Shown one piece after another: positions 13,614 to 32,500 of a stretch of 41,089 bases of DNA. The notes under the pieces are model-generated. The model searched no databases. It was not told the origin of the DNA and saw only the letters and a program-made list of their open reading frames with translations. Location: contig JACMRS010000185.1 of assembly GCA_014376345.1 (NCBI GenBank), forward strand, positions 1 through 41,089, given 5' to 3'. Each line of letters starts with the position of its first letter. Position 1 is the stretch's first letter. A program made the position numbers and the translations under genes. This DNA is from Bacteroidia bacterium (GTDB taxonomy: Bacteria > Bacteroidota > Bacteroidia > NS11-12g > UBA955).

Positions 13614-13678
13614 AAATTACGAATTGAGGGAGAATTAATGAAATTACGAATTACGGAATTATGAATTAAGAATTGAGG
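13614..13678 (+). repeat. AATTACG-type repeat array L1 (AATTACGAATT orientation)
   Basis: AAATTACGAATTGAGGGAGAATT...GAAATTACGAATTACGGAATTATGAATTAAGAATTGAGG. It is in inverted orientation relative to L2, on the other side of the four-helix-bundle gene. Confidence 0.8.
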
Positions 13679-13700
13679 CTGATTAATATTGAATTGACAA

Positions 13701-14061
13701 CTACAAATTTCGTGCTTTGATGGTTCTTTGGCTACTTCCTGTTATTTTTTGAAGTACCAATACATCGTTTAATAAACTTTCACTTTGATCATAAGATAAA
13801 TAGCCGGTATCTATCAATAATCGAATCCAGTAATGTGTTTCTCTGGTTTCTTTGTATGAAATAGTTAGTTTAGCAAAAAAATCCTTTTCACTTTGTCCAC
13901 CAATTGCCTCTTCAACATTTGCACCTATTGAAGTCCCGCATCTCAGCAATTGTTTGCTTAAGTTAAATTCTCTTTTTTCATCACACAAATACTGATATAC
14001 TTTAACAATACGAACTGCAAATGCATAGCTTTTCTGTTGAATAAGATTGTTTTTTTTTCAT
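13701..14061 (-). pseudogene. Four-helix-bundle protein (23S rRNA intervening-sequence protein family), frameshifted in an A9 tract next to the start codon
   Basis: The C-terminal 95 aa match the family (LLRCGTSIGANVEEA.GGQS.KDF..KL.IS.KE.RET.YW..L). In-frame sequence upstream of the track start encodes ..NNLIQQKSYAFAVRIVKVYQYL, the family's first helix. It is cut off from the ATG at 14059-14061 by an in-frame TGA. With A8 instead of A9 (14050-14058) the frame opens as MKKNNLIQQKSY... Confidence 0.7.
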
Positions 14062-14153
14062 AGGTATTGAGGTTAAATGTCCTACTTGCAGATCTTAAAG
14101 TATCCATTGCAGGTACTATTAATACAAATATAATCACTTTTTAAATCAAATTA

Positions 14154-14235
14154 AATTCATGATTATTTTCTTCATTCATAATTCTGTAATTCATGATTCA
14201 GTAACCCATTCGTAATTCGTAATTAAATCCCCCTC
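14154..14235 (-). repeat. AATTACG-type repeat array L2 (ATTCGTAATT orientation)
   Basis: ...TTCATAATTCTGTAATTCATGATTCAG...CATTCGTAATTCGTAATTAAATCCCCCTC. Its reverse complement shares AATTACGAATTACG, GAATTATGAAT and GAGGG.GA blocks with L1. Confidence 0.8.
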
Positions 14236-14339
14236 ACCAACTAGTTTTATTCAGTTGTAAATTAATTCCTTCGCCATGCTTTTAATTAAGGGCAGGCCTT
14301 CAGAATAACAAGGCTCTAGAAGATAAATCAGAAATTTTT

Positions 14340-14385
14340 CATTCGTAATTTGTAATTCCGTAATTCGTAATTAAATTCCCTCCCC
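14340..14385 (-). repeat. AATTACG-type repeat array L3
   Basis: CATTCGTAATTTGTAATTCCGTAATTCGTAATTAAATTCCCTCCCC. It overlaps the last codons and the stop of the CDS at 14371-15135. Confidence 0.8.
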
Positions 14386-15135
14386 AACAGCCTTCAAAAC
14401 CTCTTTCACTTTTAATAAATCTGCTTCTGGGTTGCGGACGATTTTATGCTGATTGTCATTTTTGAACAAGTCGTACGATATAGATATTAGTTTTATGCCA
14501 TGTAATGGCAATTCTGTAGCTCTTCGTTGATCGTAGATAAGGCGCTGTTCTCCTCTGTGTACACCGCTGACTGTTGTTACATCCTGTTTATCGAAAATGG
14601 CGTGAGAAACAGTGTGTTGCGATTCTTTATACTCTATCACCAATTGGTAACTTGGGTAATAAGCATCAACCGGCAATTTGGTTCTCGAAAAACCATCTTT
14701 ATGCAAATCTCCTAAAAGAAAATCAAAACGTTTCTGACGCTCAGCCTTTTCTCCTAATACCTTATCACACAGATCCAGGACGTAGGTTTCATCACTCTGT
14801 AAACGCATTTGATTGGCGGTTTCCTTTTTAACAGAAACCTGCTCTTTGTAAAAGGTAGTAGGGGCAGATTCATTTTTAGGAATAAAATACCAATATGTAT
14901 TGGCCTCTTTGCGCTCCGCATGCAAGAATGGAATGAGTGACAGCTGATCGTCACTGTCTAATTCTCTAAGAACATCACGAAGAGGTTTTCCGTTTTTATG
15001 GTCTTTTTTAAAGATACCCGCTTTAATAAATTCCGGCATCAGTTCTTTAGCCGGCACAATTTTAAGTCCAGAGTTGTTAACGAAAAATGCTTCAATAGCG
15101 TTGTTAATATTTTGTATTATTGATTTGTCTGTCAT
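14371..15135 (-). CDS. Hypothetical protein with a C-terminal Vsr/DUF559-like (PD-(D/E)xK restriction-endonuclease fold) motif
   Basis: 254 aa with ATG start. KLPVDAYYPSYQLVIEYKESQH fits the D-x11-E-x-K / (V)D(F)...(V)E(V)DG..H pattern of DUF559/Vsr-like nucleases. I do not recognise the N-terminal ~130 aa. Confidence 0.45.
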   Translation of the reverse strand: MTDKSIIQNINNAIEAFFVNNSGLKIVPAKELMPEFIKAGIFKKDHKNGKPLRDVLRELDSDDQLSLIPFLHAERKEANTYWYFIPKNESAPTTFYKEQVSVKKETANQMRLQSDETYVLDLCDKVLGEKAERQKRFDFLLGDLHKDGFSRTKLPVDAYYPSYQLVIEYKESQHTVSHAIFDKQDVTTVSGVHRGEQRLIYDQRRATELPLHGIKLISISYDLFKNDNQHKIVRNPEADLLKVKEVLKAVGEGI

Positions 15136-15190
15136 TGTTTTTTTTTAAAGTGAACCCTCGCAGTTCACCTCTGTATTTGCAATCCTGTAA

Positions 15191-15616
15191 TTACTTAATA
15201 TAATTAGGAGATTCGCACATTTGCCAATACTCAACGATGGTTTTTAAAACATTTTTTAAACCCTCCATACTTGTTGGTTTTACAAAGAAACCTTGAATTG
15301 ATTTAGAGTATGCATCAATAACAGCTTCTTGCTCTGCGCTTGTAGTAAAAAATAAATATGGAATAGTTTTGATACGGATATCCTCATTTTCATGAATCTG
15401 ATTTCTTAGTTCCATACCATTAAGTTTAGGCATATTGATGTCTGAAAAAACGATAAAAGGCTCAGTTGTTTTTGCAGTCAGGTAAGCGAGCGCTTCTTGT
15501 CCGTCATTAAAAAAAACAATTTCATTTTTGTAATTGAGTTCTTTAAATACTTCGCTAAACATTTCCTGATCATCAGAGTCATCTTCAACAATAATAATTG
15601 CACCTTTTTTATTCAT
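15191..15616 (-). CDS. Stand-alone response-regulator receiver (CheY-like)
   Basis: IIVEDDSDD acidic pocket, phospho-acceptor VFSDINMP, FFTTS and FFVKP signature residues. No output domain. Confidence 0.85.
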   Translation of the reverse strand: MNKKGAIIIVEDDSDDQEMFSEVFKELNYKNEIVFFNDGQEALAYLTAKTTEPFIVFSDINMPKLNGMELRNQIHENEDIRIKTIPYLFFTTSAEQEAVIDAYSKSIQGFFVKPTSMEGLKNVLKTIVEYWQMCESPNYIK

Positions 15617-15724
15617 TTTTATTTTATTTTTTAATTTACAAATGTATGCTTATAAAATCATTTAATACTCAAGTAAATGTGCGGTTAAATGGGGTTGTAA
15701 GGTGAAATCTAGCGTTTCAAGCCA

Positions 15725-16024
15725 TTATAAAAAAGTAAGTCCGATTGTTTTATTTAATCCAAGTTCAAAAATTCTGATTAATGTAGACAATTGAATATTG
15801 CCTTTTGCATTTTCTATTTTAGAAATATAACTTTTTTTGGTGCCAGTTTTTTCTGCAAGTTGTTCCTGAATTAAATTTGCTTTTTTTCTTGCTTCTTTTA
15901 GCATTTCACTGATAATAAACATTTGGGAATTCTCTTCGTATTTATATCTCTTTTCAGTTCCTGTTTTTCCGTTTTCAACTTTAATGAGTTGATCAAATGT
16001 GTTTATGTTATCGTACTTTTTCAT
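15725..16024 (-). CDS. XRE-family helix-turn-helix transcriptional regulator (antitoxin-like architecture)
   Basis: LKEARKKANLIQEQLAEKTGTKKSYISKIENAKGNIQLSTLIRI is a canonical HTH_3 motif. It has an N-terminal ~35-aa extension, as in HigA-like Bacteroidota proteins. No partner toxin ORF is visible. Confidence 0.8.
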   Translation of the reverse strand: MKKYDNINTFDQLIKVENGKTGTEKRYKYEENSQMFIISEMLKEARKKANLIQEQLAEKTGTKKSYISKIENAKGNIQLSTLIRIFELGLNKTIGLTFL

Positions 16025-16076
16025 GTTTTTTTTAAAGAGTTACGTTTTAAAAAATGAGACCAAATCATAATTTGTA

Positions 16077-16116
16077 TCCCCTAATTCGTAATCTGTAATT
16101 CCCTAATTCGTAATTC
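16077..16116 (-). repeat. AATTACG-type repeat array L4
   Basis: TCCCCTAATTCGTAATCTGTAATTCCCTAATTCGTAATTC, lying between the stop of the REC gene (16120) and the start of the HTH gene (16024). Same orientation as L2 and L3. Confidence 0.8.
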
Positions 16117-16119
16117 TTT

Positions 16120-16521
16120 TCAAAAATACCCTCTCAGTTCCTCAACATTCAAAGGTTTGCTAAGTATGGCTTTAACAAATGGATCGGCTAATGCTTTCTC
16201 CTGATCGCCTTTATCAATGGTAGAGGAGAGTAAGAATAATGTAGAAGCACTAGTTATTTTTTCGGGAAGCTTCGCATACTCTTCTAAAAATTCAAAACCA
16301 TTCATTCCCGGCATTTGTATATCCAAAAGAATGATGTCGGGAATCAGTTTTTCGTTTTCTGCATTTGCTTTTAGGTATTCAAGGGCTTCTGAACCCGAAT
16401 TATAAGTTAAAGTTTTTGAAGCAGCCTTGTTAAGCTCCAGAATTTTTACCACAACAAAAATGTCAAGCTGATTGTCGTCAACGCACATGTAAAATGCATT
16501 CAGATAATCATGATTTTTCAT
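16120..16521 (-). CDS. Stand-alone response-regulator receiver, last gene of the phosphorelay operon
   Basis: CVDDNQLD, phospho-acceptor ILLDIQMPGMNGFE, LLSST and ILSKP. 14-nt overlap with the upstream hybrid kinase gene. Confidence 0.85.
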   Translation of the reverse strand: MKNHDYLNAFYMCVDDNQLDIFVVVKILELNKAASKTLTYNSGSEALEYLKANAENEKLIPDIILLDIQMPGMNGFEFLEEYAKLPEKITSASTLFLLSSTIDKGDQEKALADPFVKAILSKPLNVEELRGYF

Positions 16522-17599
16522 TCGGAATTGTTATTTTAAATGTAAGTCCACCTTCGATATTTGTTTCTACCGAAACAGAGCCTTTTAAAAGATCCACAGC
16601 TTCTTTAACAATATAAAGACCAATGCCGGTGCCGCTGTTGTTATTCTGAGCCTTAAAAAACATTCTGAAGAGCTTATCTTTGTCTTCCTCACGGACACCC
16701 GATCCATTGTCTTCAATCGTAAATCTGGCTTCTTTTTTATCTGTTTCAACACTGATCCTGATTCTTTTATCAGGATTGTCCTGCCTTTGAAATTTAACTG
16801 CATTAGAAAGCAGGTTCCCCAAAATAATTCTCACTCTGAAGGGTGTACTGTAAAAAGTTTCTTCAATGCGGTAATCTTTAATAATGCTTACCGAGCCAAA
16901 ATTGCTGTAATTAGATATGCTGCCGAGAATCTCGTCAACCATTTTCTCCAAATTTACTTCTGAATGCGAAGCGTCAATTTTTTTATTCTGATGGTATTCT
17001 ATAATGTTTCTTATAAAAATATCGAGCTTTTCAACACTCTGACCAATCATGCCAAAATACTCCATCAGCTTTTCAGTGTCTGCACCAAAACCTGCAATGT
17101 TAACAATGCCAAGTATCGACATCAGTGGTGCCCTCAACTCATGCGAAACACTATAAACAAAACGACTCAGCTCCTGATTGGCTTTGTCGAGTGCCGCAAT
17201 TTTTTCTGTAAGTACAGATTCTGTCATGTACTTTTGATACGCATTATCAATAGTAATTTTTAATAAGTTAACATCCCATGGTTTGTCTAAAAATTGATAA
17301 ACACCACCTTTATTGATTGCCGCAATAGCAGCTTCCATATCAGAATATCCTGTTAAAAGAATTTTGATTGCTTTAGGATATTTTGCTGTAACAATTTCGA
17401 AAAACTCCACACCTGTCATGCTTGGCATACGTTGGTCTGAAATGATAACTTGATATTCTTTGCTTTCCAGTTTTTTCAAGCCTTCAACGCCACTAATGGC
17501 AGTAGAGATGTTATACTCGCGTCTGAAAGTAGCCATGAAAGAATTAAGATTCTCCTCTTCATCGTCTACATATAATACAGTCACCTTGTTATCCTTCAT
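16508..17599 (-). CDS. Cytoplasmic hybrid response regulator / histidine kinase (REC-HisKA-HATPase_c)
   Basis: REC domain (VLYVDDEEENL, IISDQRMP, LLTGYSD, LDKPW). H-box SHELRAPL, N-box LLSNAVKF, G1 EDNGSGV, G2 GTGIGLYIV. No TM segments. Confidence 0.9.
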   Translation of the reverse strand: MKDNKVTVLYVDDEEENLNSFMATFRREYNISTAISGVEGLKKLESKEYQVIISDQRMPSMTGVEFFEIVTAKYPKAIKILLTGYSDMEAAIAAINKGGVYQFLDKPWDVNLLKITIDNAYQKYMTESVLTEKIAALDKANQELSRFVYSVSHELRAPLMSILGIVNIAGFGADTEKLMEYFGMIGQSVEKLDIFIRNIIEYHQNKKIDASHSEVNLEKMVDEILGSISNYSNFGSVSIIKDYRIEETFYSTPFRVRIILGNLLSNAVKFQRQDNPDKRIRISVETDKKEARFTIEDNGSGVREEDKDKLFRMFFKAQNNNSGTGIGLYIVKEAVDLLKGSVSVETNIEGGLTFKITIPNEKS

Positions 17600-17602
17600 G
17601 GT

Positions 17603-19762
17603 TTAAGATGGTTGATGCCGTGGCAAAGTTATAATAAATTCTGTCATTTTATCCGGTTCAGATTCAACTCTGATAGTTCCGTTGTGTGATTCAATAATCT
17701 GGTAAACAATAGAAAGACCTAAACCTGTGCCATGTCCAACATCTTTTGTAGTAAAAAATGGTTCAAAAATACGTGCTTTAACATAGTCTGGAATACCCGG
17801 GCCATTATCCTTAATGCGTATTTCTACGCCGTCTTCTAATTCATTAGTAGTTATAGTTATCGTACATTTTTTATTGTGGCATTCTTTTAATGCTTGCACT
17901 GCATTATTCAGAATATTCATAAATACCTGGTTCATTTTTCCCGGGTAACATTCTATTTTTTTATCAAGATTATAATCTTTAATAATCTCAATGTCATTTC
18001 CCAATTCACTTTTCAGGATAATTAATGTGCTGTCTATACCTTCCTGAATATCAGTAAACTTCAAATCACTTTCGTCCAGTCTGGAAAACAATCTCAGTCC
18101 TTTAACAATTTCTGCTGTTCTTGAAGCACCATGGGCAATGCCTTCAAGTAATGTATTTATTTCTGTTTTAAGAAAGTCGAGATCAATTTTAGTTTTATAT
18201 TTTTCTATTTCTTTTAAATGGCTCTCCTTGTCATCTTTATGAATAGTTTGATCATACAAATCTAACAAACCATACATATCTTCAATGTCCATTTTAAGGG
18301 GTCTTATGTTACTACTTACAAAGTTAATAGGATTGTTGATTTCATGGGCGATACCGGCAGTAAGCTGACCGAGACTTGCCATTTTTTCTGCACTTACAAG
18401 TTGTGCCTGTGCTTCTTTAAGATCTTTAATAGCTCCGCTTAAATTGGTGTTTGCTACCTGAAGTTTTTCAGTTCTCTCTTCAACTTTTTGTTCAAGCATT
18501 ACATTCTGCTCACTGATAATTTTAGCATTTTCTTTAACTGCTTCAAGTGCTTCTGCCTGAGAGGCTTCTTTGTCTCTTCTAAGCACGTTTATTTTATCTG
18601 CAAGCGCAATAGAAAGCATTACAGCTTCGAGAGCAGATCCGATCTGCATAATGTAATAAGTGAAATCATTGTATGGCAGAATGCCAAAGTCTCTGAGCAC
18701 GAAAATAAAAACACCTACTAAAAATACAACCCAGGCGAAAAGGAAAAATTTAGCCTCCCTGATCTTCTTTCTGTAAAGTATCACACTTAAAATAAGCATG
18801 TACGTAGCAGTTAGTGATACTGCAATCTGTAATATTAAATAGCTAAGTCTGTAGATGCCGGCTAAAGACAAACTTAAAGAGATTCCATACAATATAAATG
18901 CAATGAAAAATCCTTTATCAAGTCGTGGAATATTACGTGCAGTATTTAGGAACTGACGCATAAATAACACTGCTGCCGGACCAACGAGGGTGCTGCTGAT
19001 ATACACACTTTCATTAGCCATCCAGGGCCAGTTGGCAAAGAAATATTTAAATGAATAGCCTTGCAAAGTGGCTTGTGTCAGACCTACTATAAAAATATAA
19101 ATTACGTAGTATAAGTATTCTTTGTTGTCGCCTTTAACAGTGAAATAAAGTGCCAGGTTATACAGCAGCATCACCAGTATAATTCCGAAATAAATGCCTG
19201 CAAAAATATCTTTTAAAAGAAGAGATTGAAAGATGCTTTTTTCAGTTCCTGCGTAAACCGGAACCTGAAGTTGTTCATTGGTACGCACTTTCAGAAGTAT
19301 GCTTGCAGACTCACCTTGACCAATTAAAACATCAAAAATATAATGGTGGTGAGGGTAACTTCTTTTGTTGAAAACATACATGTCACCAGAGGTGTCACTT
19401 CTGATCACACTGTCACCTTTCAACTGCATAAAAATTACTTCATCTGTAGTTGCCTGAGCAAGTTCTAGAAGTACTTTATCAGCATTCGTATTGTTTGTAA
19501 TATTGAGTTTAAGCCAGTATGATGATGCTGTAATGCCAAGATTATGAACGTCAATGGGAACATAAGTAAACTTAAGAGAAAGTGCTTCCTTTACAGTAAA
19601 GTTATTCTGTGGATCTTCAAGCCAGGATATGTTTTTGCCAATCAGAAAATGTTTGTCTCCGATTATTTTAACTGTATCTTGTGCATAGGAAGGTAATTGC
19701 AATAGCAGTAATAAAAACAATACCGGCAGGCTTTTGTATTTTTTGAGTGTTTTCAATTTCAA
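17603..19762 (-). CDS. 7TMR-DISM family sensor histidine kinase (DISMED2 extracytoplasmic domain + 7 TM + HisKA + HATPase_c)
   Basis: Signal peptide, a ~150-aa extracytoplasmic domain, then about seven hydrophobic helices (res ~185-390) and a coiled coil. H-box AHEINNPINF, N-box ILNNAVQA, G1 KDNGPGI, G2 GTGLGLSIV. Apparent TTG start overlapping the upstream stop (TTGA). Confidence 0.85.
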   Translation of the reverse strand: MKLKTLKKYKSLPVLFLLLLLQLPSYAQDTVKIIGDKHFLIGKNISWLEDPQNNFTVKEALSLKFTYVPIDVHNLGITASSYWLKLNITNNTNADKVLLELAQATTDEVIFMQLKGDSVIRSDTSGDMYVFNKRSYPHHHYIFDVLIGQGESASILLKVRTNEQLQVPVYAGTEKSIFQSLLLKDIFAGIYFGIILVMLLYNLALYFTVKGDNKEYLYYVIYIFIVGLTQATLQGYSFKYFFANWPWMANESVYISSTLVGPAAVLFMRQFLNTARNIPRLDKGFFIAFILYGISLSLSLAGIYRLSYLILQIAVSLTATYMLILSVILYRKKIREAKFFLFAWVVFLVGVFIFVLRDFGILPYNDFTYYIMQIGSALEAVMLSIALADKINVLRRDKEASQAEALEAVKENAKIISEQNVMLEQKVEERTEKLQVANTNLSGAIKDLKEAQAQLVSAEKMASLGQLTAGIAHEINNPINFVSSNIRPLKMDIEDMYGLLDLYDQTIHKDDKESHLKEIEKYKTKIDLDFLKTEINTLLEGIAHGASRTAEIVKGLRLFSRLDESDLKFTDIQEGIDSTLIILKSELGNDIEIIKDYNLDKKIECYPGKMNQVFMNILNNAVQALKECHNKKCTITITTNELEDGVEIRIKDNGPGIPDYVKARIFEPFFTTKDVGHGTGLGLSIVYQIIESHNGTIRVESEPDKMTEFIITLPRHQPS

Positions 19763-20445
19763 CGGATTATCAGATCATAACTTATTTCAACTTCGCCTTT
19801 TGGCACTTTTTCTTTTCGTATATGTACAGGATTATTTCTAAGATCCATTACTGAAGCCTTTACTTCAGCGGCTGCAGTTGTTAATAAATGTGGATTCTGA
19901 CTCAAAACTCTTGCTACGTAATTTGAGTTAGGATAAATAAATGTTCCATCATTTCCAAGACTTGTTTCAACCTGAAAGCCAATCCTGGTTGCCATTCTTA
20001 AAGTGTAAGCTGCAACTATGGTAAACATAGACGTAACAGGTAACTGGTTAACAATTGACATGCCTGCAATTACCAGTAAAAATGTAATACCCATGTTAGG
20101 TGCTTCTTCTCTTGAATTCCATAAACCGCAAAGCTCACAGGTACCACCGTTGTCAGAATATTGTTTTACCATGTTAAAAATATTCTTATCAAAATGTCCT
20201 ACTGCATCTTCCACAGGCAATGGATTTATTCCATCTGCAATTTGAATACGAATACCACCTAGCAGGTGTTCGGAATTATCTGATTTTGCAGTAATGACGT
20301 AGATATTCGGATTTTTAGGCCAGGTAGGTTTGTTAGTTGAAATATTTGTCAGATTAAAGCCTTCAAGCACACGGCGGTGACCCTCGATAAATTGCTGACA
20401 ATTTTCCGGGTTGTCAATTGCTCTGAATGCTTTGAATGATATCAT
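19759..20445 (-). CDS. Orphan 228-aa protein, possibly GNAT-like acyltransferase fold
   Basis: ATG start, wedged between the E1/nitroreductase gene (5-nt gap) and the kinase gene (4-nt overlap). The central ..GGTCELCGLWNS...APNMGITFLL...M.. and later AAYTLRMATRIGF..E..LG..GTF.YP segments resemble the beta4-alpha3 and alpha4 region of GNAT or autoinducer-synthase-like folds. This is pattern recognition only. Confidence 0.35.
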   Translation of the reverse strand: MISFKAFRAIDNPENCQQFIEGHRRVLEGFNLTNISTNKPTWPKNPNIYVITAKSDNSEHLLGGIRIQIADGINPLPVEDAVGHFDKNIFNMVKQYSDNGGTCELCGLWNSREEAPNMGITFLLVIAGMSIVNQLPVTSMFTIVAAYTLRMATRIGFQVETSLGNDGTFIYPNSNYVARVLSQNPHLLTTAAAEVKASVMDLRNNPVHIRKEKVPKGEVEISYDLIIR

Positions 20446-20450
20446 CTGTA

Positions 20451-22751
20451 TTAAAGCCTGAAAAATAACTCAGTTAATGGTTTTCTAAGACTTCTTACTT
20501 CGTGTTTTTCCGCTTCAAATATTCTGAAAATAAAAACAGGTTCTCTATTTTCATCAAGAAACTTTCTATTGAATTCTGCTTGTTGGTCTTTCATTTCTTC
20601 TATATCCTCTTGAGATAATCCTTCCCCTTTACCATAATTAACTCTATGCCATATTGCAATAGGAGAAAGCATTGGTTGCATTCCCCAGTTTTTATGGTTC
20701 AATAATAGCCATAATCTTTGGATTGCCCTACCTGAATTTATATACTTAACAACAGTATCCTGACCTGTAAAGCTTAAAATGCCTAGTGCAGTGGAACTTG
20801 CTATTAATTTTTTACTTAATTTTCCAAGTCCTGCTCCTTTATTCCAGCTTCTGAGTAAGGAAATTACTGCAGGATAAGATGCCATGTGAAGTCCTGCCAC
20901 ATCAAGCGGTCCGAAACCTGCGGTGCGAATATCCAGTCCGTCGCGTTCCTTCTCTGCCTGCTCTTTCGTCCAGCGCATTTCCTTTACAAAGAAATCAGGA
21001 TGCCCTTCTTTATGCATCAGTCTGATTCTGTCAGCAAGTGCAATTGTATTGGCAATAAACATCATATCTTCTTGATTATCCACAAGAGTTATTGACAAGT
21101 CATCTGAATGCCCGATACAGTTTTTAAGGTCATTTTCAACATCAGAAGGCAGTGGTTTTTTATTGCCCTTGTTTCTGTTTGTATACCTTGCGCCAATTTC
21201 ATTTGCCAGATTAATATCGCATTCATCCATTTCAACACCACTGCGTTTTATTGAAATTGTAGCCACTAAATTCTCACTTTCACCTGCAGGAAATAAATCA
21301 ATATTAGGTTGAAACCCCATTCTTTTTGATTCTAAAGAAAATGTTTCAATGGCTGTTCCTAAAGCGATCTGGGCGATAAAATTATTGTGATCCATAAAAG
21401 AAACGGAACTCGATCTGTCGTGAAACAAATAAAAGATGCCGTTGTAAAGCGCCCATTTCCAGGGTTGTGTATTTCCTGCTGAAGGCGCAAGTAAAACTGC
21501 ATTAATCAGCGTTTCTATTTCACTTTCTGAAGCAGTCATTTCAGCAGTGTCTTTTTTAAAGTTTGTTTTCAGGAAATTGTGAATCCACTCTTTAGTAAGA
21601 GGTGTTAAAGTGTTTTGTTTTAAAACAGTTTTTTCTGAAGAAACAGGATCGCAGAAAATCTCATCCATATCAACATGAAATCTTCCTGATTTGTGAAATT
21701 CATCAAGAAGAATTTTTCTAGAAACATCAGCAGTAATGCCACCTCCGAGCGTTACGGCTGAAGCTAGTTGTGGCCAGGTAGTAATGGTTTCACCAATTTC
21801 AAGCATTGATGCTTTTGTGCGCTCAGAAACTGTATGCAGTCCTACTATTTGTAACATGTAAGGAATTTTATCCTCATTTGTTTTAAGTGATTTGAGGATG
21901 TCGATATTGATGTCTCCAACCAGTCCGTGAAGGAGTGGGCGGTCGGGTTCCAGATCGAATCTTTCAATATCTACCATTCCACGGTCGCTAGCTTCCTGCA
22001 CAACAGGGATGCCAAGTGAACGCGCCTTCAAACGTGCCAGTATTTTTATATCCAGTCCGTCAGATTCATCAATCAACAGGTCTAGTTTGCCATCACCTGT
22101 AAAAAAACTATCCATGTTTTCTTCTGTAATGCCATCATGAAAACATACCACATCGAGGTACGGATCTATTTCTGCAATTTCACGGGCTACAGAAACAGTT
22201 TTCAATAAACCAAGATTGTGAAGTGGTGTTCTGATTCTGTTGTAATTACTGAGTTCCAGTATGTCATAATCTGCAATCCTCAATTGTCCGAATCCGCGTT
22301 CCATAGCTAATGTTACTGAAACTGACTGTCCCACAGAAAGTCCGATTACACCTATTTTTTTTGTTGAAAGTGTGTTTCGTTCCGCAAGTGTTATTTTATA
22401 GTTATTGCGTGAAGTTCTGAGTTCAATAAAATCTTCTTTGTGAAGGATATGAACTAGCCTGAAACTCCAGGGATAATATACCCATGTTCCGATATGCGAG
22501 GTATCACCTCCCGAAATGTACTTAATTACTGCATCATTAAGAGATTGTGATGTGTATGTTATTTGGGCATTTCTGCATTTTATAAGTTCTGCAAGCTGTC
22601 CAATTATCTCATCGCATATTTGGATATGTGGATTTTCAGTCAGAAGTTTTTCTAGTGCTTCAGCTTGCCCGGGCTTACTTTTGTCAAAGAAATCCGGACG
22701 TGTTTTATGTTTTTCAAGGTGATTTATTTTAGCGGTTGTTTGCTCTTGCAT
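20451..22751 (-). CDS. Rv1355c-family protein: N-terminal E1/ThiF-like adenylyltransferase domain fused to Acg-type tandem nitroreductase-fold domain
   Basis: ThiF-like core (KKIGVIGLSVGQSV...LRIADYDILELSNYNRI....LG..K.....EI.EIDPYLDV...DG.T..N.D.F......DLLIDESD.LDIK...R..ARSLGIPVV...SDRG.VDIERFDLEPDRPLLHGL). A C-terminal ~370 aa carries the nitroreductase signature APSAGNTQPWKW. 766 aa in total. Confidence 0.7.
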   Translation of the reverse strand: MQEQTTAKINHLEKHKTRPDFFDKSKPGQAEALEKLLTENPHIQICDEIIGQLAELIKCRNAQITYTSQSLNDAVIKYISGGDTSHIGTWVYYPWSFRLVHILHKEDFIELRTSRNNYKITLAERNTLSTKKIGVIGLSVGQSVSVTLAMERGFGQLRIADYDILELSNYNRIRTPLHNLGLLKTVSVAREIAEIDPYLDVVCFHDGITEENMDSFFTGDGKLDLLIDESDGLDIKILARLKARSLGIPVVQEASDRGMVDIERFDLEPDRPLLHGLVGDINIDILKSLKTNEDKIPYMLQIVGLHTVSERTKASMLEIGETITTWPQLASAVTLGGGITADVSRKILLDEFHKSGRFHVDMDEIFCDPVSSEKTVLKQNTLTPLTKEWIHNFLKTNFKKDTAEMTASESEIETLINAVLLAPSAGNTQPWKWALYNGIFYLFHDRSSSVSFMDHNNFIAQIALGTAIETFSLESKRMGFQPNIDLFPAGESENLVATISIKRSGVEMDECDINLANEIGARYTNRNKGNKKPLPSDVENDLKNCIGHSDDLSITLVDNQEDMMFIANTIALADRIRLMHKEGHPDFFVKEMRWTKEQAEKERDGLDIRTAGFGPLDVAGLHMASYPAVISLLRSWNKGAGLGKLSKKLIASSTALGILSFTGQDTVVKYINSGRAIQRLWLLLNHKNWGMQPMLSPIAIWHRVNYGKGEGLSQEDIEEMKDQQAEFNRKFLDENREPVFIFRIFEAEKHEVRSLRKPLTELFFRL

Positions 22752-22776
22752 AATTTAAAAAATAAAGTACCCCGGT

Positions 22777-22784
22777 CAAATATA
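22777..22784 (-). promoter_or_regulatory. Candidate -7 box (TATATTTG) for the minus-strand operon
   Basis: TAnnTTTG match on the minus strand, 25 nt upstream of the ATG at 22751, inside the 146-bp divergent intergenic region. Confidence 0.35.
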
Positions 22785-22897
22785 AGTAGCGAAAGTCATT
22801 TTAATATAATATTTAATTTTTTTTTTCACTATTTTATCATAAAGTAACAAAATGACCTGTTTTTTACATAATCTTGCATACTGTGTAGAAATAAATT

Positions 22898-23362
22898 ATG
22901 TCTGAAGAAAGAATTAAAATTCTGTATGTGGATGATGAAATTCACAATCTGAATGCTTTTAAAGCATTATTCAGAAGAGAATATGATATTTTTACTGCCG
23001 AATCTGCGGAAGATGGCATGAAACTTCTCAAAGAGCAGCAACCTCATATAATTTTAACAGATCAGCGAATGCCTGTTTGCACGGGAATAGAGTTTCTGGA
23101 GCAGGTAATACCGCTTTATCCTGATCCTATTCGAGTATTGGTTACCGGATATTCTGATATCAATGCGGTAATTGATTCGATTAATAAGGGTCAGATATTT
23201 AAATACATTCCAAAGCCCTGGAAAGAAGAAGATCTGCGCATGCACATCAACAATGCTTACGAGGTTTTTCGTCTTCGAAAAGAAAATAAAGAACTGACAG
23301 CAAAGTTGCTAGTAGCCAACGAACAACTTGAATTTCTGCTGCGGCAGAAATTATTATCGTAA
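22898..23362 (+). CDS. Stand-alone response-regulator receiver with a C-terminal coiled-coil tail (divergent from the operon)
   Basis: ILYVDDEIHNL, ILTDQRMP, LVTGYSD and IPKPW. By eye about half its residues are identical to the REC domain of the hybrid kinase at 16508-17599. Confidence 0.9.
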   Translation: MSEERIKILYVDDEIHNLNAFKALFRREYDIFTAESAEDGMKLLKEQQPHIILTDQRMPVCTGIEFLEQVIPLYPDPIRVLVTGYSDINAVIDSINKGQIFKYIPKPWKEEDLRMHINNAYEVFRLRKENKELTAKLLVANEQLEFLLRQKLLS

Positions 23363-29530: not shown

Positions 29531-32500
29531 TTATTTAATTATCGCAAATTTCTCTGTTGTACTGCCACCGTTATACTGCATTGTTACAGTATAAATACCT
29601 TCGGGAAGTGCAATCAGATTAAGTGAATTTGTATTGAGTCCATCAGTAGCGCTGACCGTTTGGGTGTAAACATTTTTACCAACCATGTCAGTAACAGTTA
29701 CTTTTACAGCCTGCTCGTCATGTGAATTAAATTCAAGATTGAATAAACCTGTATTTGGATTTGGATAAATTTTAGCCTGTTCAATAGCTGCAGAACGTTT
29801 GTAAACCACAGCAATTGTTGAATAAGTTATGGTACCGTTTAAATCAATTTGTTTCAACCTGTAAGTTATCGGTCCTGCTGGAAGTTCATTCACATCATCA
29901 ATAAAATTATAACTTACGGGAGCACTTGTATTTCCATTTGATCTTACAAAACCCACTTTTTCAAAACCTTTGCTACCACTGTATAAACGTTCAACTTCAA
30001 ATCCTGCATTGTCAGTTTCTGAAGCTAGATTCCATTTTACTTTTGTTGTGCGGTTTTCAAAAAGATCAGCCGTAAAACTCAACATATGAACAGGTAATGC
30101 TGCTCCACTTGTCTGGAATTGATATTTACAAGAACTGAATCCGCAAGTTGGACTGTTATCATCTACTATCATGTAATATTCTGTAGCAGGAGCAAGTATC
30201 CATGTCAGAGTACCTGAACTTGAAATTGTCTGACAGGTACCCATTTGCGAACCTAAACCAGGACATACACCGGTGTTAAATATACTCACTCTTAAACCAT
30301 TCGAACATTTGCTGATATTTGAAAAGGCTGCATTAAACGGCTGGTAGTAAATTGAATTGTTTGTTCTAAATTTATACATGTTAGAATTACATGCTGCCTT
30401 GCCACAAGTTGCAGGTTCGCCTATTTCTGCTGTTGCTGCACACAAGCTGTCCAAACCGGAATTTAATTTTGCTGCTTTATATAATGAATCTGCAGAGCTA
30501 CAAGCATTGTTAACCATCGGGAATGAGTAACTTACTTTGGTAGAATCTATGCTCACACAATTACCATTTGTAATTGCCCATCTGAATGTATAATTGCCAT
30601 TAGTCAATCCTGAGATGCCTGTATTGCGTGTTGCAGGTGCAGCAATAGTAGCAGTATTAGGACCTGAAAGTTGTGTCCACATACCTGTTCCTACAGAATC
30701 TACGCTACCATTTAAAGTTGTAAAATTCTGACAGATTACCTGTCTTGCGCCTCCAATTGCAATTGCCGGTATTTTCACAATTTTTACTGTGTCGAAAGCA
30801 TCACTGGTAGGGCAACTTCCGCTTTTAATGCGCCATCTGTATATATAGGTGCCTGTATCAATTCCCAAAACTACAGGAGTAGGAGAGGTTGAATCTGTAA
30901 ATGAAGTACTGAATGGTCCTTTAATCTGCCTCCATGTTCCTGCACCTGATGAAGGATTGTTGCCATTTAAATTTACAGGTTGTCCGATACAGGTTTTAAT
31001 ATTAGAAGGACTTGCTGTTGCAACTGTAGGAAGGCTTGATAAAACATATTTTACAGTATCTCTTGAAACACATAAACCATTAGTGATAGTCCATATATAA
31101 TTATAAGTACCTGAAGTCGTTAATGTCAAACCTGAAGTGTTTGATGCCGGTGTTGCAATAGTAGATGACGGCACAACATTTTGTTTAGACCAAGCACCAG
31201 TTCCAATAATGGCACTGTTACCATTAAGAGCAGTAGTGGTTCTTACACATATTGCTGAATCTGAACCTGCATTAGAAACAGTTGGATTTAGAGAAGGTAC
31301 AAAAATGGCAATGGTATCAATGCTCGGTGAGCAAACAACGCCACCACTTCTGATGTCCCAAACATATTTGTAGGTTCCTGTTGAAGTCATACCCGTAATT
31401 TTTGTCGCAGGATTTGCCGGTTCCTCGATAACAGCTGATAGCGGACCGGAAACTTGTCTCCAGTTTCCAACACCAATTAAAGCAATGTTTGCACGCATTT
31501 TAACATAGCCAGGACAGATTGTTGTATCCGCGCCGGCATTAGCAGTTGTTGGTGCTGCAAAATTTTCAATTCTAACCTCATCAGCTCTCGAACAGAAACC
31601 ATTGGTAACAGTCCAGGTGAAAAGATAAAGTCCGGTAGTTACACCAGTAACTGTTGAGTTGAATAATGTTGGAGTGGTAATAGTTCCTGCTGGACCTGCA
31701 GATTTTGTCCATACCGCAGTATTTGGTGACACATTATTACCAGCCAGAGTAAATGAAGAAGCATTACATAAAGCCTGATCTGTACCTGCATTAGGCACTT
31801 TAGTGGTATCAGAAATTATCACTTGCATTGTATCAGTAGTTTGCGGACATCCCCATCTGGCAGGGACAGTAAATGCAAACTTATAAGGAGATCCTGCAGG
31901 CGAAATGCCTGTTACTATTGCGCTGTTGTTTGAGGTAGTTGTTACAGTGCCTGATCCGCCGGCAGCTTTGGTCCATGTGCCAATACTTCCTGAAGGTCCT
32001 ATTAAACTTGTACTTGTCAGATTGCAATATCCTGCATCAGCACCGGCTGCGGCACTTATCACAACTGTATCACTTACAAAAGCACTCTGTGCAGGGCACA
32101 AACCACCATTTGAATAGGCTGTATATTTAAAATTGTAAATGCCAGTTATTAAATTTGAAACCAATGTGGTAGCAGAATCAGGATCAGCAATATTGGGTAC
32201 ATTCGGAGCAGCACCATTCAGTGACCAGATTGAGACTCCGTTTTTAATTCTGTTGGCTGTTAGTGTTAGTGAAGTACCTCCGCAAAGTTTTTGTGAACCA
32301 CCAATTACAGGAATTATTGGTTTATTATCAATATTAATTTCAACTGTATCAGTTGATCCAGAACAAGCATTGTTTGTAACAGTCCATGCAAAACGATAGC
32401 CTCCTGAAATTAAACCTGTAAGTCTTGCTGTAGGAGAATGAATATCAGTAATTGACCAGCCTGCAGGGCCTGAGGCTAATGTCCAGGTTCCGATTCCTAT

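Follow-up and report, generated by a model that had tools for sequence, protein, structure and literature searches.

A predicted N-acyl oxazolone synthetase is encoded with an acyltransferase partner and a 7TMR-DISM phosphorelay in Bacteroidota

Our results indicate that a 766-residue protein encoded in the window (the whole 41,089-nucleotide stretch of Bacteroidia DNA analysed here) belongs to a family of oxazolone-forming enzymes and heads an operon whose make-up is conserved across the phylum. The explanation that we prefer, with a probability of roughly 0.78, is that the protein is a two-activity synthetase of the TrzS/OxzB type that works with the acyltransferase encoded downstream, in one operon with a phosphorelay for which the product would be either the cue or the output. 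The locus is most likely a unit for small-molecule synthesis that is linked to a phosphorelay, and its product is possibly a signal with its own receptor. This synthetase–acyltransferase–kinase context appears to be unreported. The first-pass annotation had placed the protein outside any molybdopterin, thiamine or RiPP context; the protein does have a context, the conserved operon. The annotation had also called its substrate completely open, which is outdated now that Rv1355c is known as TrzS (PMC12856293). Because TrzS has been characterised and an acyltransferase partner lies directly downstream, the substrate class becomes predictable as an N-acyl amino acid that is adenylated on its free carboxylate.

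The features of the window that bear on this reading are as follows.

16120-16521, minus strand: 133-aa response regulator, REC-only, at the end of the operon (Pfam Response_reg)
16508-17599, minus strand: REC-HisKA-HATPase hybrid, a response-regulator-controlled kinase, 363 aa (Pfam)
17603-19762, minus strand: 7TMR-DISM sensor histidine kinase, 719 aa (Pfam)
19759-20445, minus strand: predicted N-acyl amino-acid synthase of the FeeM/AHL-synthase fold, 228 aa (model and profile match)
20451-22751, minus strand: predicted TrzS/OxzB-type oxazolone synthetase (P0001), 766 aa
22395-22751, minus strand: synthetase residues 1-119, conserved N-terminal domain
21642-22394, minus strand: synthetase residues 120-370, ThiF-like adenylating cyclase domain
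Synthetase residues 371-405, minus strand: linker, low confidence in the model
20454-21536, minus strand: synthetase residues 406-766, Acg-like tandem nitroreductase-fold flavin oxidase
22752-22897, no strand: A+T-rich divergent control region, read from the sequence
22898-23362, plus strand: REC-only response regulator, 154 aa, divergent, with a C-terminal helical tail (Pfam Response_reg)

The predicted synthetase matches the Rv1355c family along its full length

The reading frame of the synthetase runs uninterrupted from 22751 to 20451. Pfam recognized ThiF at residues 120-310 (E 7.8e-15) and Nitroreductase at residues 408-436, and the Rv1355c-family model NF005901 gave a score of 721.2 bits against a cut-off of 476, with residues 13-761 aligned to model positions 7-716 and the same result in a genome-level search. 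By this match, the protein belongs to the Rv1355c family over its full length. A profile built from 26 orthologues was compared with the PDB: positions 406-698 matched Acg (2ymv) with an E-value of 1.8e-19, and positions 129-263 matched TcdA with an E-value of 2.5e-8, the best sequence match to a ThiF-type protein of solved structure. Foldseek searches with the AlphaFold2 model (pLDDT 81) returned Acg 2ymv with a TM-score of 0.82 (normalised to the target) and ThiF/MoeB/Uba5 with TM-scores of about 0.7, with MccB and PaaA as weaker structural matches. The first-pass annotation had proposed a ThiF/E1-like domain joined to an Acg-type tandem nitroreductase fold, and Pfam, the profile–PDB comparison and the structural model all uphold that architecture. 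The Rv1355c-type motif variant GLSVG that it described lies at residues 137-141, where it had been placed, with ADYDILELSNYNR at 160-172 and APSAGNTQPWKW at 422-433.

Two other family assignments were rejected on score. The model for the Acg family proper (NF047509) gave 112 bits against a cut-off of 199, so that the fold is common to both but the protein is not an Acg-proper (FDO-B) member. Models for MoeB/ThiF sulfur-carrier adenylyltransferases, to which the old 'MoeY' label refers, gave 20-50 bits against cut-offs of 150-650.

Rv1355c, formerly 'MoeY', is TrzS, an N-acyl-tryptazolone (oxazolone) synthetase whose partner N-acyltransferase is TrzA (Rv1356c); the enzyme combines an ATP-dependent cyclase with an FMN- and O2-dependent desaturase to convert N-acyl-tryptophan to the oxazolone, and the pathway is found in M. 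tuberculosis, M. smegmatis and Rhodococcus jostii (PMC12856293). [quoted passage not shown]

Functionally important TrzS residues appear to be conserved

Substitution of D217 with alanine abolishes the cyclase activity of TrzS, and the R540A and Q651A substitutions impair FMN binding and desaturation (PMC12856293). In the window protein, the conserved counterpart of D217 is D231, and those of R540 and Q651 are probably R577 and Q692. The equivalence of R540 and Q651 is one that we infer, because their numbering was carried over, with offsets of 10-13 residues, through the M. haemophilum orthologue (about 30% identity to the window synthetase over about 700 residues, with the gene layout EAL-trzA-trzS) and not from the M. 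smegmatis sequence. Conservation among 82 orthologues is at least 97% at D231, R577 and the ATP-site residues G137-G141, D161, N169, N171, R172 and K184, and these residues are also identical in three actinobacterial orthologues. Across 28 aligned sequences, 84 columns are invariant, including D231, R577, G137, G141, D161, N169, N171, R172 and K184, and position 692 is Q or H. Alignment with TcdA places D231 in the 'IDAID' motif. A check of the supplement to PMC12856293 for Bacteroidota members and residue tables found none.

The ATP- and FMN-site residues, whose conservation the first-pass annotation had proposed checking, are retained. It had also proposed inspecting the catalytic-Cys positions of E1 enzymes; the orthologue alignment contains no conserved Cys in this domain and no CxxC zinc site.

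We infer the chemistry of the window enzymes from these characterised relatives. The acyltransferase would N-acylate an amino acid from acyl-CoA or acyl-ACP, after which the ThiF-like domain would use ATP to adenylate the free alpha-carboxylate of the N-acyl amino acid. Attack of the amide oxygen on the acyl-adenylate would then close the 5(4H)-oxazolone ring without passing through a cysteine thioester, and the C-terminal FMN oxidase domain would desaturate the C-alpha/C-beta bond with O2. The product would be functionally tied to the phosphorelay, as cue or output, because both enzymes share a conserved operon with the kinase, the hybrid and the REC-only proteins.

Other known enzymes resemble this arrangement in part. 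OxzAB of Pseudoalteromonas rubra, a tyrazolone/phenazolone synthetase (de Rond et al., bioRxiv 10.1101/2020.06.11.147165), also comprises an N-acyltransferase and a ThiF–nitroreductase fusion and makes N-acyl oxazolones from an aromatic amino acid and fatty acyl-CoA. The FDO and ThiF domains of OxzB, however, fall in subclusters other than those of Rv1355c (PMC10404671, PMC12856293), whereas the window protein scores with the Rv1355c model, and kinase linkage is not reported for oxzAB. TyzBC, of the M. tuberculosis TyzACB system, carries out a reaction equivalent to that of TrzS; TyzACB has the same three activities, and the nearest structures to TyzA are FeeM and BjaI, as for the 228-aa protein (PMC10404671), but its cyclase and oxidase are separate proteins where the window protein has them fused. 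TcdA, the tRNA t6A dehydratase, is likewise ThiF-like and, by adenylating a carboxylate, drives the closure of a ring within its substrate, but it acts on a tRNA nucleoside and has neither a flavin domain nor an acyltransferase partner.

The downstream gene encodes a candidate N-acyltransferase partner

Single-sequence and profile searches with the 228-aa protein found no match in Pfam, NCBIfam or the PDB; because it has no Pfam match, the acyltransferase had gone unrecognised at first reading. Fold and profile–profile comparison were the sole informative methods for this protein. With its AlphaFold2 model (pLDDT 90), Foldseek ranked FeeM (2g0b) first (E 1.5e-7, TM 0.79-0.81), followed by the AHL synthases EsaI and BjaI. 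Using hhalign, the family profile matched the mycobacterial/rhodococcal TrzA-like family with a probability of 84.8% (E 6.6e-6, 183 columns) and one Rhodococcus TrzA-like sequence with a probability of 15.7%; the relation to TrzA is visible with a family alignment, single-sequence comparisons being insufficient. Two such comparisons, with a single Streptomyces plasmid GNAT that adjoins a ThiF-only gene and with a 164-aa ORF beside the M. dioxanotrophicus Rv1355c homologue, showed no relation. The FeeM-like fold is common to many GNATs, and the TrzA profile match is of moderate probability (85%).

The 228-aa protein is predicted to be the equivalent of OxzA, TrzA and TyzA, a partner that would supply the substrate of the synthetase. 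A natural fusion of ThiF and acyltransferase (P0354) was also found. TrzS, too, has an adjacent FeeM-fold acyltransferase that is kin to the window's protein at profile level, but the Bacteroidota family has diverged so far that no Pfam or NCBIfam model covers it.

A phosphorelay accompanies the enzyme pair

The synthetase is the first gene of a tightly packed operon with gaps of 5, -4, 3 and -14 nt, a spacing that suggests co-transcription; the start of the kinase gene (19762) overlaps the acyltransferase stop. The 719-aa kinase contains a DISMED2 periplasmic domain, 7TM, HisKA and HATPase domains, and the REC domain of the divergent 154-aa protein is paralogous to that of the hybrid kinase. 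The response regulators of the module all lack output domains, whether DNA-binding or enzymatic, and the genes thus reveal no feedback loop; nor does the module contain an exporter gene. The control region holds a match to the Bacteroidota -7 consensus TAnnTTTG: TATATTTG, at 22777-22784 on the minus strand, which lies about 25 nt upstream of the ATG of the synthetase. A promoter and terminator scan gave sigma-70 results at chance level, the sigma-70 model being unsuited to Bacteroidota.

This arrangement recurs throughout the Bacteroidota loci that we compared. Of 84 loci, 83 have the acyltransferase next to the synthetase, and in all 80 with enough sequence the enzyme pair is followed by a 7TMR-DISM kinase. 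Where there was room for the gene, the REC–kinase hybrid was present in 61 of 69 loci, the 133-aa REC-only protein in 51 of 61 and the divergent 154-aa REC-only protein in 75 of 79. In an unbiased sample of 301 genomes, the kinase adjoins the acyltransferase in 13/13 acyltransferase-positive genomes, and the best twelve matches to the kinase sensor domain beyond its own genome all came from acyltransferase-positive genomes and adjoined the acyltransferase. The acyltransferase (NAT) and kinase-sensor trees have broadly congruent topologies, and show a module that was inherited as a unit. Signal-transduction neighbours are also a feature of TrzAS loci, mycobacteria and Rhodococcus having c-di-GMP enzymes there, but the 7TMR-DISM phosphorelay is tied to the Bacteroidota module and absent from the actinobacterial loci, and the usual Bacteroidota gene order of synthetase then acyltransferase is unlike that of TrzAS.

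The step after acylation varies, with ThiF plus FDO, ThiF alone or a carboxyl methyltransferase. On the acyltransferase and kinase-sensor trees the oxidase domain has been lost at least three times, and some oxidase-less relatives have no FDO anywhere in their genomes, which suggests that a desaturated oxazolone is not always the end product. Two relatives have an ICMT-type (ICMT/PEMT-family) carboxyl methyltransferase in place of the whole synthetase. As predicted from the genes, each variant would always mask the carboxylate; the expected product is a saturated oxazolone for the ThiF-only cassettes and an N-acyl amino-acid methyl ester for the methyltransferase cassettes. A distant acyltransferase relative (L096) adjoins a response regulator and has no kinase. 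Across the 84 loci, no acceptor-supplying gene is conserved, and the small beta-grasp or precursor genes for which a search of homologous loci had been proposed are not conserved either.

Alternative explanations

Because the synthetase is almost always packaged with the acyltransferase and a sensor-kinase relay, the compound may be a chemical signal. The quorum-sensing systems CqsA/CqsS and LuxM/LuxN pair a small-molecule synthase gene with a neighbouring gene for a polytopic membrane histidine kinase, from which a phosphorelay runs, and conserved adjacency of a synthase and a membrane kinase, as expected of an autoinducer synthase with its receptor, is found in this module too. The N-acyl oxazolone or its hydrolysis product might then be a diffusible, autoinducer-like signal sensed by the 7TMR-DISM kinase, with phosphate flowing from kinase to REC–kinase hybrid to REC-only protein in the CqsA/CqsS or LuxM/LuxN manner. 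This would refine, and not contradict, the preferred explanation, and we consider it a serious possibility that falls somewhat short of even odds. It is consistent with the strict, side-by-side co-occurrence of the synthase pair with one kinase lineage, the congruence of their trees, the FeeM/AHL-synthase fold of the acyltransferase and interchangeable post-acylation steps that would all mask the carboxylate, as expected if the molecule is to be neutral and membrane-permeant. Oxazolones do not last in water, acid and methanol destroy them (PMC12856293), and authors have proposed that they may be signals. However, adjacency and trees fit a sensor of the product and a regulator of its production alike, and the regulators without output domains, the invisible feedback loop, the missing exporter and the kinase-less locus of L096 all weigh against a signal, as does the lack of a phenotype when tyrazolone was added to producer strains in published work. 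The module also has no synthase or receptor homology to CqsA/CqsS or LuxM/LuxN.

Somewhat less likely is that the kinase senses an external or envelope cue that has nothing to do with the product, and that the relay only times the making of an N-acyl oxazolone whose role is that of a membrane lipid, an antimicrobial or a protectant against stress. Regulators often flank biosynthetic operons, a variety of external cues has been linked to known 7TMR-DISM proteins, long-chain tyrazolones of mycobacteria are lipids associated with the cells, and N-acyl tyrosine derivatives can have antimicrobial activity. Yet the module has no DNA-binding regulator for transcriptional control, the enzyme genes precede the kinase genes in a shared operon, and persistence of the module through a methyltransferase swap and repeated oxidase loss is harder to square with a specific structural lipid.

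Improbable in our view is a different chemistry, in which the adenylated N-acyl amino acid or another carboxylate would be handed to an external nucleophile, giving an ester or amide in place of a ring, and the flavin domain would be a reductase or act on another substrate. ThiF-like enzymes do have many post-adenylation outcomes (PMC12596934), ThiF-only variants without any FDO exist, and identity to TrzS is low, but the equivalog score for NF005901 is well above cut-off, TrzS orthologues have identical residues at the catalytic and FMN-site positions, and the module conserves no gene to supply an acceptor. Strongly disfavoured are modification of the C-terminus of a peptide or protein, by RiPP-like azoline/azole or microcin-type chemistry, and a sulfur-carrier adenylyltransferase ('MoeY') role: E1-like and nitroreductase-fold dehydrogenase pairs occur in azole RiPP systems, and MccB and PaaA are among the weaker structural matches, but genes for YcaO, a precursor, ThiS/MoaD or rhodanese are absent within about 10 kb and are not conserved in the 84 loci, operon gaps of at most 5 nt leave no room for a hidden small gene, the conserved Cys and CxxC zinc site are missing, and the founding member, Rv1355c, acts on N-acyl amino acids. 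The first-pass annotation had correctly noted that YcaO, a MoaD/ThiS-like carrier and a precursor are missing nearby, and the analysis found no YcaO, ThiS/MoaD, molybdopterin or thiamine gene within about 10 kb on either side; its azole-RiPP analogy is only a distant mechanistic parallel.

Implications

The 2025 TrzAS paper described the physiological role of oxazolones as "a major unresolved question" (PMC12856293), and the literature consulted lists producers of N-acyl-tyrosines and oxazolones solely from Pseudomonadota, Actinomycetota and Planctomycetota (PMC12479983). The window adds a Bacteroidota lineage, in which the predicted pathway is always linked to one kinase lineage and the carboxylate-masking step appears swappable, and it provides a putative function for a family of several hundred "hypothetical" 230-aa proteins. 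More tentatively still, the module may be a Bacteroidota cell–cell signalling cassette in which a carboxyl-masked N-acyl amino acid is the autoinducer and the co-encoded 7TMR-DISM kinase its receptor; the autoinducer would be an oxazolone in most lineages and a saturated azlactone or methyl ester in others. Carriers named for this cassette are Pedobacter, Mucilaginibacter, Daejeonella, Cryomorpha and Chitinophagaceae, and the signal hypothesis becomes directly testable in cultured non-pathogens of soil and water; cultured carriers include Pedobacter caeni DSM 16990, P. glucosidilyticus DSM 23534 and Daejeonella lutea DSM 22385. If true, the cassette would represent the first physiological role for oxazolones, and Bacteroidota would gain a native acyl-amino-acid quorum-sensing system.

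A distant member of the Rv1355c family

The synthetase gene runs unbroken for 766 codons on the minus strand of the window (22751 to 20451), and the whole protein falls in the NCBIfam family NF005901, "Rv1355c family protein" (721 bits, cut-off 476). Pfam locates its domains as follows:

aa 120-310, ThiF domain
aa 408-436, start of the nitroreductase domain

A profile of 26 orthologues matched the ThiF-like tRNA dehydratase TcdA over positions 129-263 (E 2.5e-8) and the M. smegmatis Acg homologue 2ymv over positions 406-698 (E 1.8e-19). An AlphaFold2 model (pLDDT 81) aligned with 2ymv along the entire chain at TM 0.82, normalised to the target, and with ThiF, MoeB and Uba5 at TM approximately 0.7; the N-terminal 119 residues are also conserved. 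These results uphold the E1(ThiF)-like and Acg-type nitroreductase halves proposed in the first-pass annotation, and the motifs quoted there lie where it placed them (GLSVG at 137-141, ADYDILELSNYNR at 160-172 and APSAGNTQPWKW at 422-433). As it also claimed, the roughly 10 kb on each side of the synthetase hold no gene for YcaO, ThiS/MoaD, molybdopterin or thiamine. The source genome is assembled in 376 contigs and is 77% complete.

Rv1355c is TrzS, which together with the N-acyltransferase TrzA (Rv1356c) forms N-acyl tryptazolones by an ATP-requiring cyclisation followed by a desaturation that requires O2 and FMN; D217A abolishes all products, and R540A and Q651A impair FMN binding and desaturation (PMC12856293). 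OxzAB of Pseudoalteromonas rubra (bioRxiv 10.1101/2020.06.11.147165) and TyzACB of M. tuberculosis (PMC10404671) catalyse the same reactions with tyrosine or phenylalanine as the amino acid. The window synthetase aligns over about 700 residues with full-length actinobacterial orthologues at about 30% identity. One of these is a 715-aa ThiF protein of M. haemophilum, natively preceded by an EAL protein and then a 242-aa protein; two further actinobacterial orthologues are both plasmid-borne.

Across all 28 synthetase sequences compared, 84 columns are identical. They include the ATP-site residues (nucleotide-loop G137/G141, D161, N169, N171, R172 and K184), D231 at the position of ThiF D127, MoeB D130 and M. 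haemophilum D204, R577 (M. haemophilum R530), and the motifs RxTNR and APSxGNxQPW. At Q692, which aligns with position 641 of the M. haemophilum protein, the residue is either Q or H. Because M. haemophilum numbering is offset from that of M. smegmatis TrzS by 13, 10 and 10 residues, D231, R577 and Q692 are likely the equivalents of TrzS D217, R540 and Q651. The catalytic cysteine of E1 enzymes, which the earlier annotation had singled out alongside the ATP and FMN positions, is not conserved: the E1 domain has no conserved cysteine among the orthologues, with position 230 being Ser in the window synthetase and Cys in 84% of orthologues. This is consistent with ring closure directly on the acyl-adenylate and counts against thioester or persulfide chemistry. 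The synthetase is a new and remote relative within an enzyme family whose chemistry has been characterised.

An adjoining putative acyltransferase makes the substrate predictable

The next gene encodes the putative partner:

19759-20445, minus strand, 228-aa ORF starting 5 nt downstream of the synthetase

The protein had no sequence match in Pfam, NCBIfam or PDB. Its family comprises at least 306 proteins, the named ones being unannotated Bacteroidota proteins, and an exhaustive profile search gave 648 representatives at 50% identity clustering. Its AlphaFold2 model (pLDDT 90) matches FeeM best (2g0b, E 1.5e-7, TM 0.79-0.81), followed by the AHL synthases EsaI and BjaI; the same structural neighbours are reported for TyzA. 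A TrzA-like profile, seeded with a 260-aa gene beside a Rhodococcus Rv1355c homologue and taking in the M. haemophilum protein between the EAL gene and trzS, matched the 228-aa family with 84.8% probability (E 6.6e-6, 183 columns). In one metagenomic protein (P0354) a ThiF domain is fused to an acyltransferase of this type. Other members carry a TIR domain (P0291) or leucine-rich repeats (P0273); the ThiF fusion alone bears on the oxazolone finding.

With this partner adjoining the synthetase, the E1-like domain can be predicted to act on the free carboxylate of an N-acyl amino acid that the neighbouring enzyme supplies. Given this and the family membership (Rv1355c being TrzS), the first-pass view that the substrate was "completely open" is unsupported. 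The acyltransferase would N-acylate an amino acid, the carboxylate of the product would be adenylated, and ring closure and then desaturation would follow. Judging from family membership and conserved residues, we consider this enzymology probable (about 0.78).

The module includes a conserved phosphorelay

The minus-strand operon continues, in order, with a 7TMR-DISM histidine kinase, a REC-HisKA-HATPase hybrid and a REC-only protein, the gaps between its five successive genes being 5, -4, 3 and -14 nt. A second REC-only gene is divergent from the operon, across a 146-bp A+T-rich region with a TAnnTTTG-type motif. Elsewhere in the window lie:

13614-16116, short cassette immediately following the operon, made up of a 254-aa ORF, an XRE-type HTH gene (15725-16024) and, at 15191-15616, a REC-only gene
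13701-13988, 23S-rRNA-IVS-family four-helix-bundle gene next to this cassette
29531-34807, minus strand, 1758-aa ORF

We compared 84 related loci selected by similarity, from four metagenome contigs and 80 species representatives (Cryomorphaceae, Flavobacteriales, Sphingobacteriaceae, Chitinophagaceae and Cytophagaceae), with synthetases 41-47% identical to that of the window.

Module genes in the related loci (last four rows: among loci with enough sequence to hold the gene)
Adjacent acyltransferase: 83 of 84 (the lone exception stops at the end of its contig)
7TMR-DISM kinase: 80 of 80
REC-kinase hybrid: 61 of 69
133-aa REC protein: 51 of 61
Divergent REC protein: 75 of 79

Because these loci were similarity-selected, we added 301 evenly sampled Bacteroidota genomes. 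Hits to the acyltransferase profile came from 13 of them, in 11 of 144 genera. The 12 best matches to the kinase sensor domain outside the window's genome all came from acyltransferase-positive genomes and all adjoined the acyltransferase; once the kinase of the window is counted, sensor-domain matches cover all thirteen such genomes. Flanking genes vary among loci. The module is patchily distributed yet constant in make-up.

Acyltransferase and kinase-sensor trees separate two Pedobacter module lineages (L008/L012/L025/L028, which also have two tandem divergent REC genes, and L051/L064/L067/L069), pointing to horizontal exchange or old duplication. Typical Bacteroidota modules in metagenome-assembled genomes labelled 'uncultured Bifidobacterium', 'Akkermansia' or 'Janthinobacterium' (L071, L085, L022, L036) seem more likely to be mis-binned contigs than real transfers.

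Variants lack the oxidase domain or replace the synthetase

Instead of the fusion, three of the sampled genomes and a single metagenome contig have a ThiF-only gene (357-385 aa) that retains the acyltransferase and the 7TMR-DISM kinase as flanking genes. In two genomes the ThiF-oxidase fusion gene is replaced by one for a 212-213-aa ICMT/PEMT-family membrane carboxyl methyltransferase, located between acyltransferase and kinase:

L087 9331-10437, ThiF-only gene
L088 9169-10293, ThiF-only gene
L089 9724-10821, minus strand, ThiF-only gene
L095 5869-6942, ThiF-only gene
L092 9124-9762, plus strand, ICMT/PEMT-family gene
L093 8702-9343, minus strand, ICMT/PEMT-family gene

No homologue of the flavin-dependent oxidase domain was found anywhere in the three complete ThiF-only genomes, in a search that recovered its positive control, and these loci may yield a saturated oxazolone. 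ThiF-only forms are dispersed among fusion-type loci in the acyltransferase tree, which implies three or more losses of the oxidase domain. Enzymes of the ICMT family transfer a methyl group to the free alpha-carboxylate of a lipidated amino acid. The swap in these two genomes points to a methyl ester of an N-acyl amino acid as alternative product. Each of the three versions follows N-acylation with a step that neutralises the negatively charged carboxylate, and each keeps the kinase.

Signalling neighbours and possible role

Homologues of trzA and trzS lie beside a GGDEF protein on Rhodococcus qingshengii plasmid pLP1 (L100 2803-7127) and beside an EAL protein in M. haemophilum (L101 3711-8911), echoing the rv1354c/rv1357c neighbourhood of TrzAS (PMC12856293); signal-transduction neighbours recur across phyla. 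On a Streptomyces sp. NBC_01471 plasmid (L099 4818-7715), a MerR regulator precedes a ThiF-only gene and an Acetyltransf_3 GNAT. This ThiF protein is 44.7% identical to the N-terminal half of the window synthetase, more than the 30-35% of full-length actinobacterial homologues, and the GNAT has no sequence relation to the 228-aa family; the locus may be a further pathway variant.

Three features tentatively favour the reading that the product is a signal and the kinase its receptor: the module is strictly tied to a single kinase lineage, the acyltransferase has an AHL-synthase-like fold, and the carboxyl-masking step is interchangeable. Against a simple signalling loop, the module encodes no protein with an output domain, whether DNA-binding or enzymatic. 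That the relay merely regulates production of the compound, which adjacency alone would fit equally well, we regard as slightly less likely.

Literature searches found no published link between trzAS-type genes and a kinase; the accounts consulted describe only c-di-GMP genes nearby and speculate on signalling, leaving kinases unmentioned (PMC12856293, PMC10404671, PMC12596934). A conserved link to a 7TMR-DISM phosphorelay, an acyltransferase family that lacks annotation, and variants of the ThiF-only and ICMT kinds together give a new form of the oxazolone system. This Bacteroidota form opens the purpose of oxazolones to experiment.
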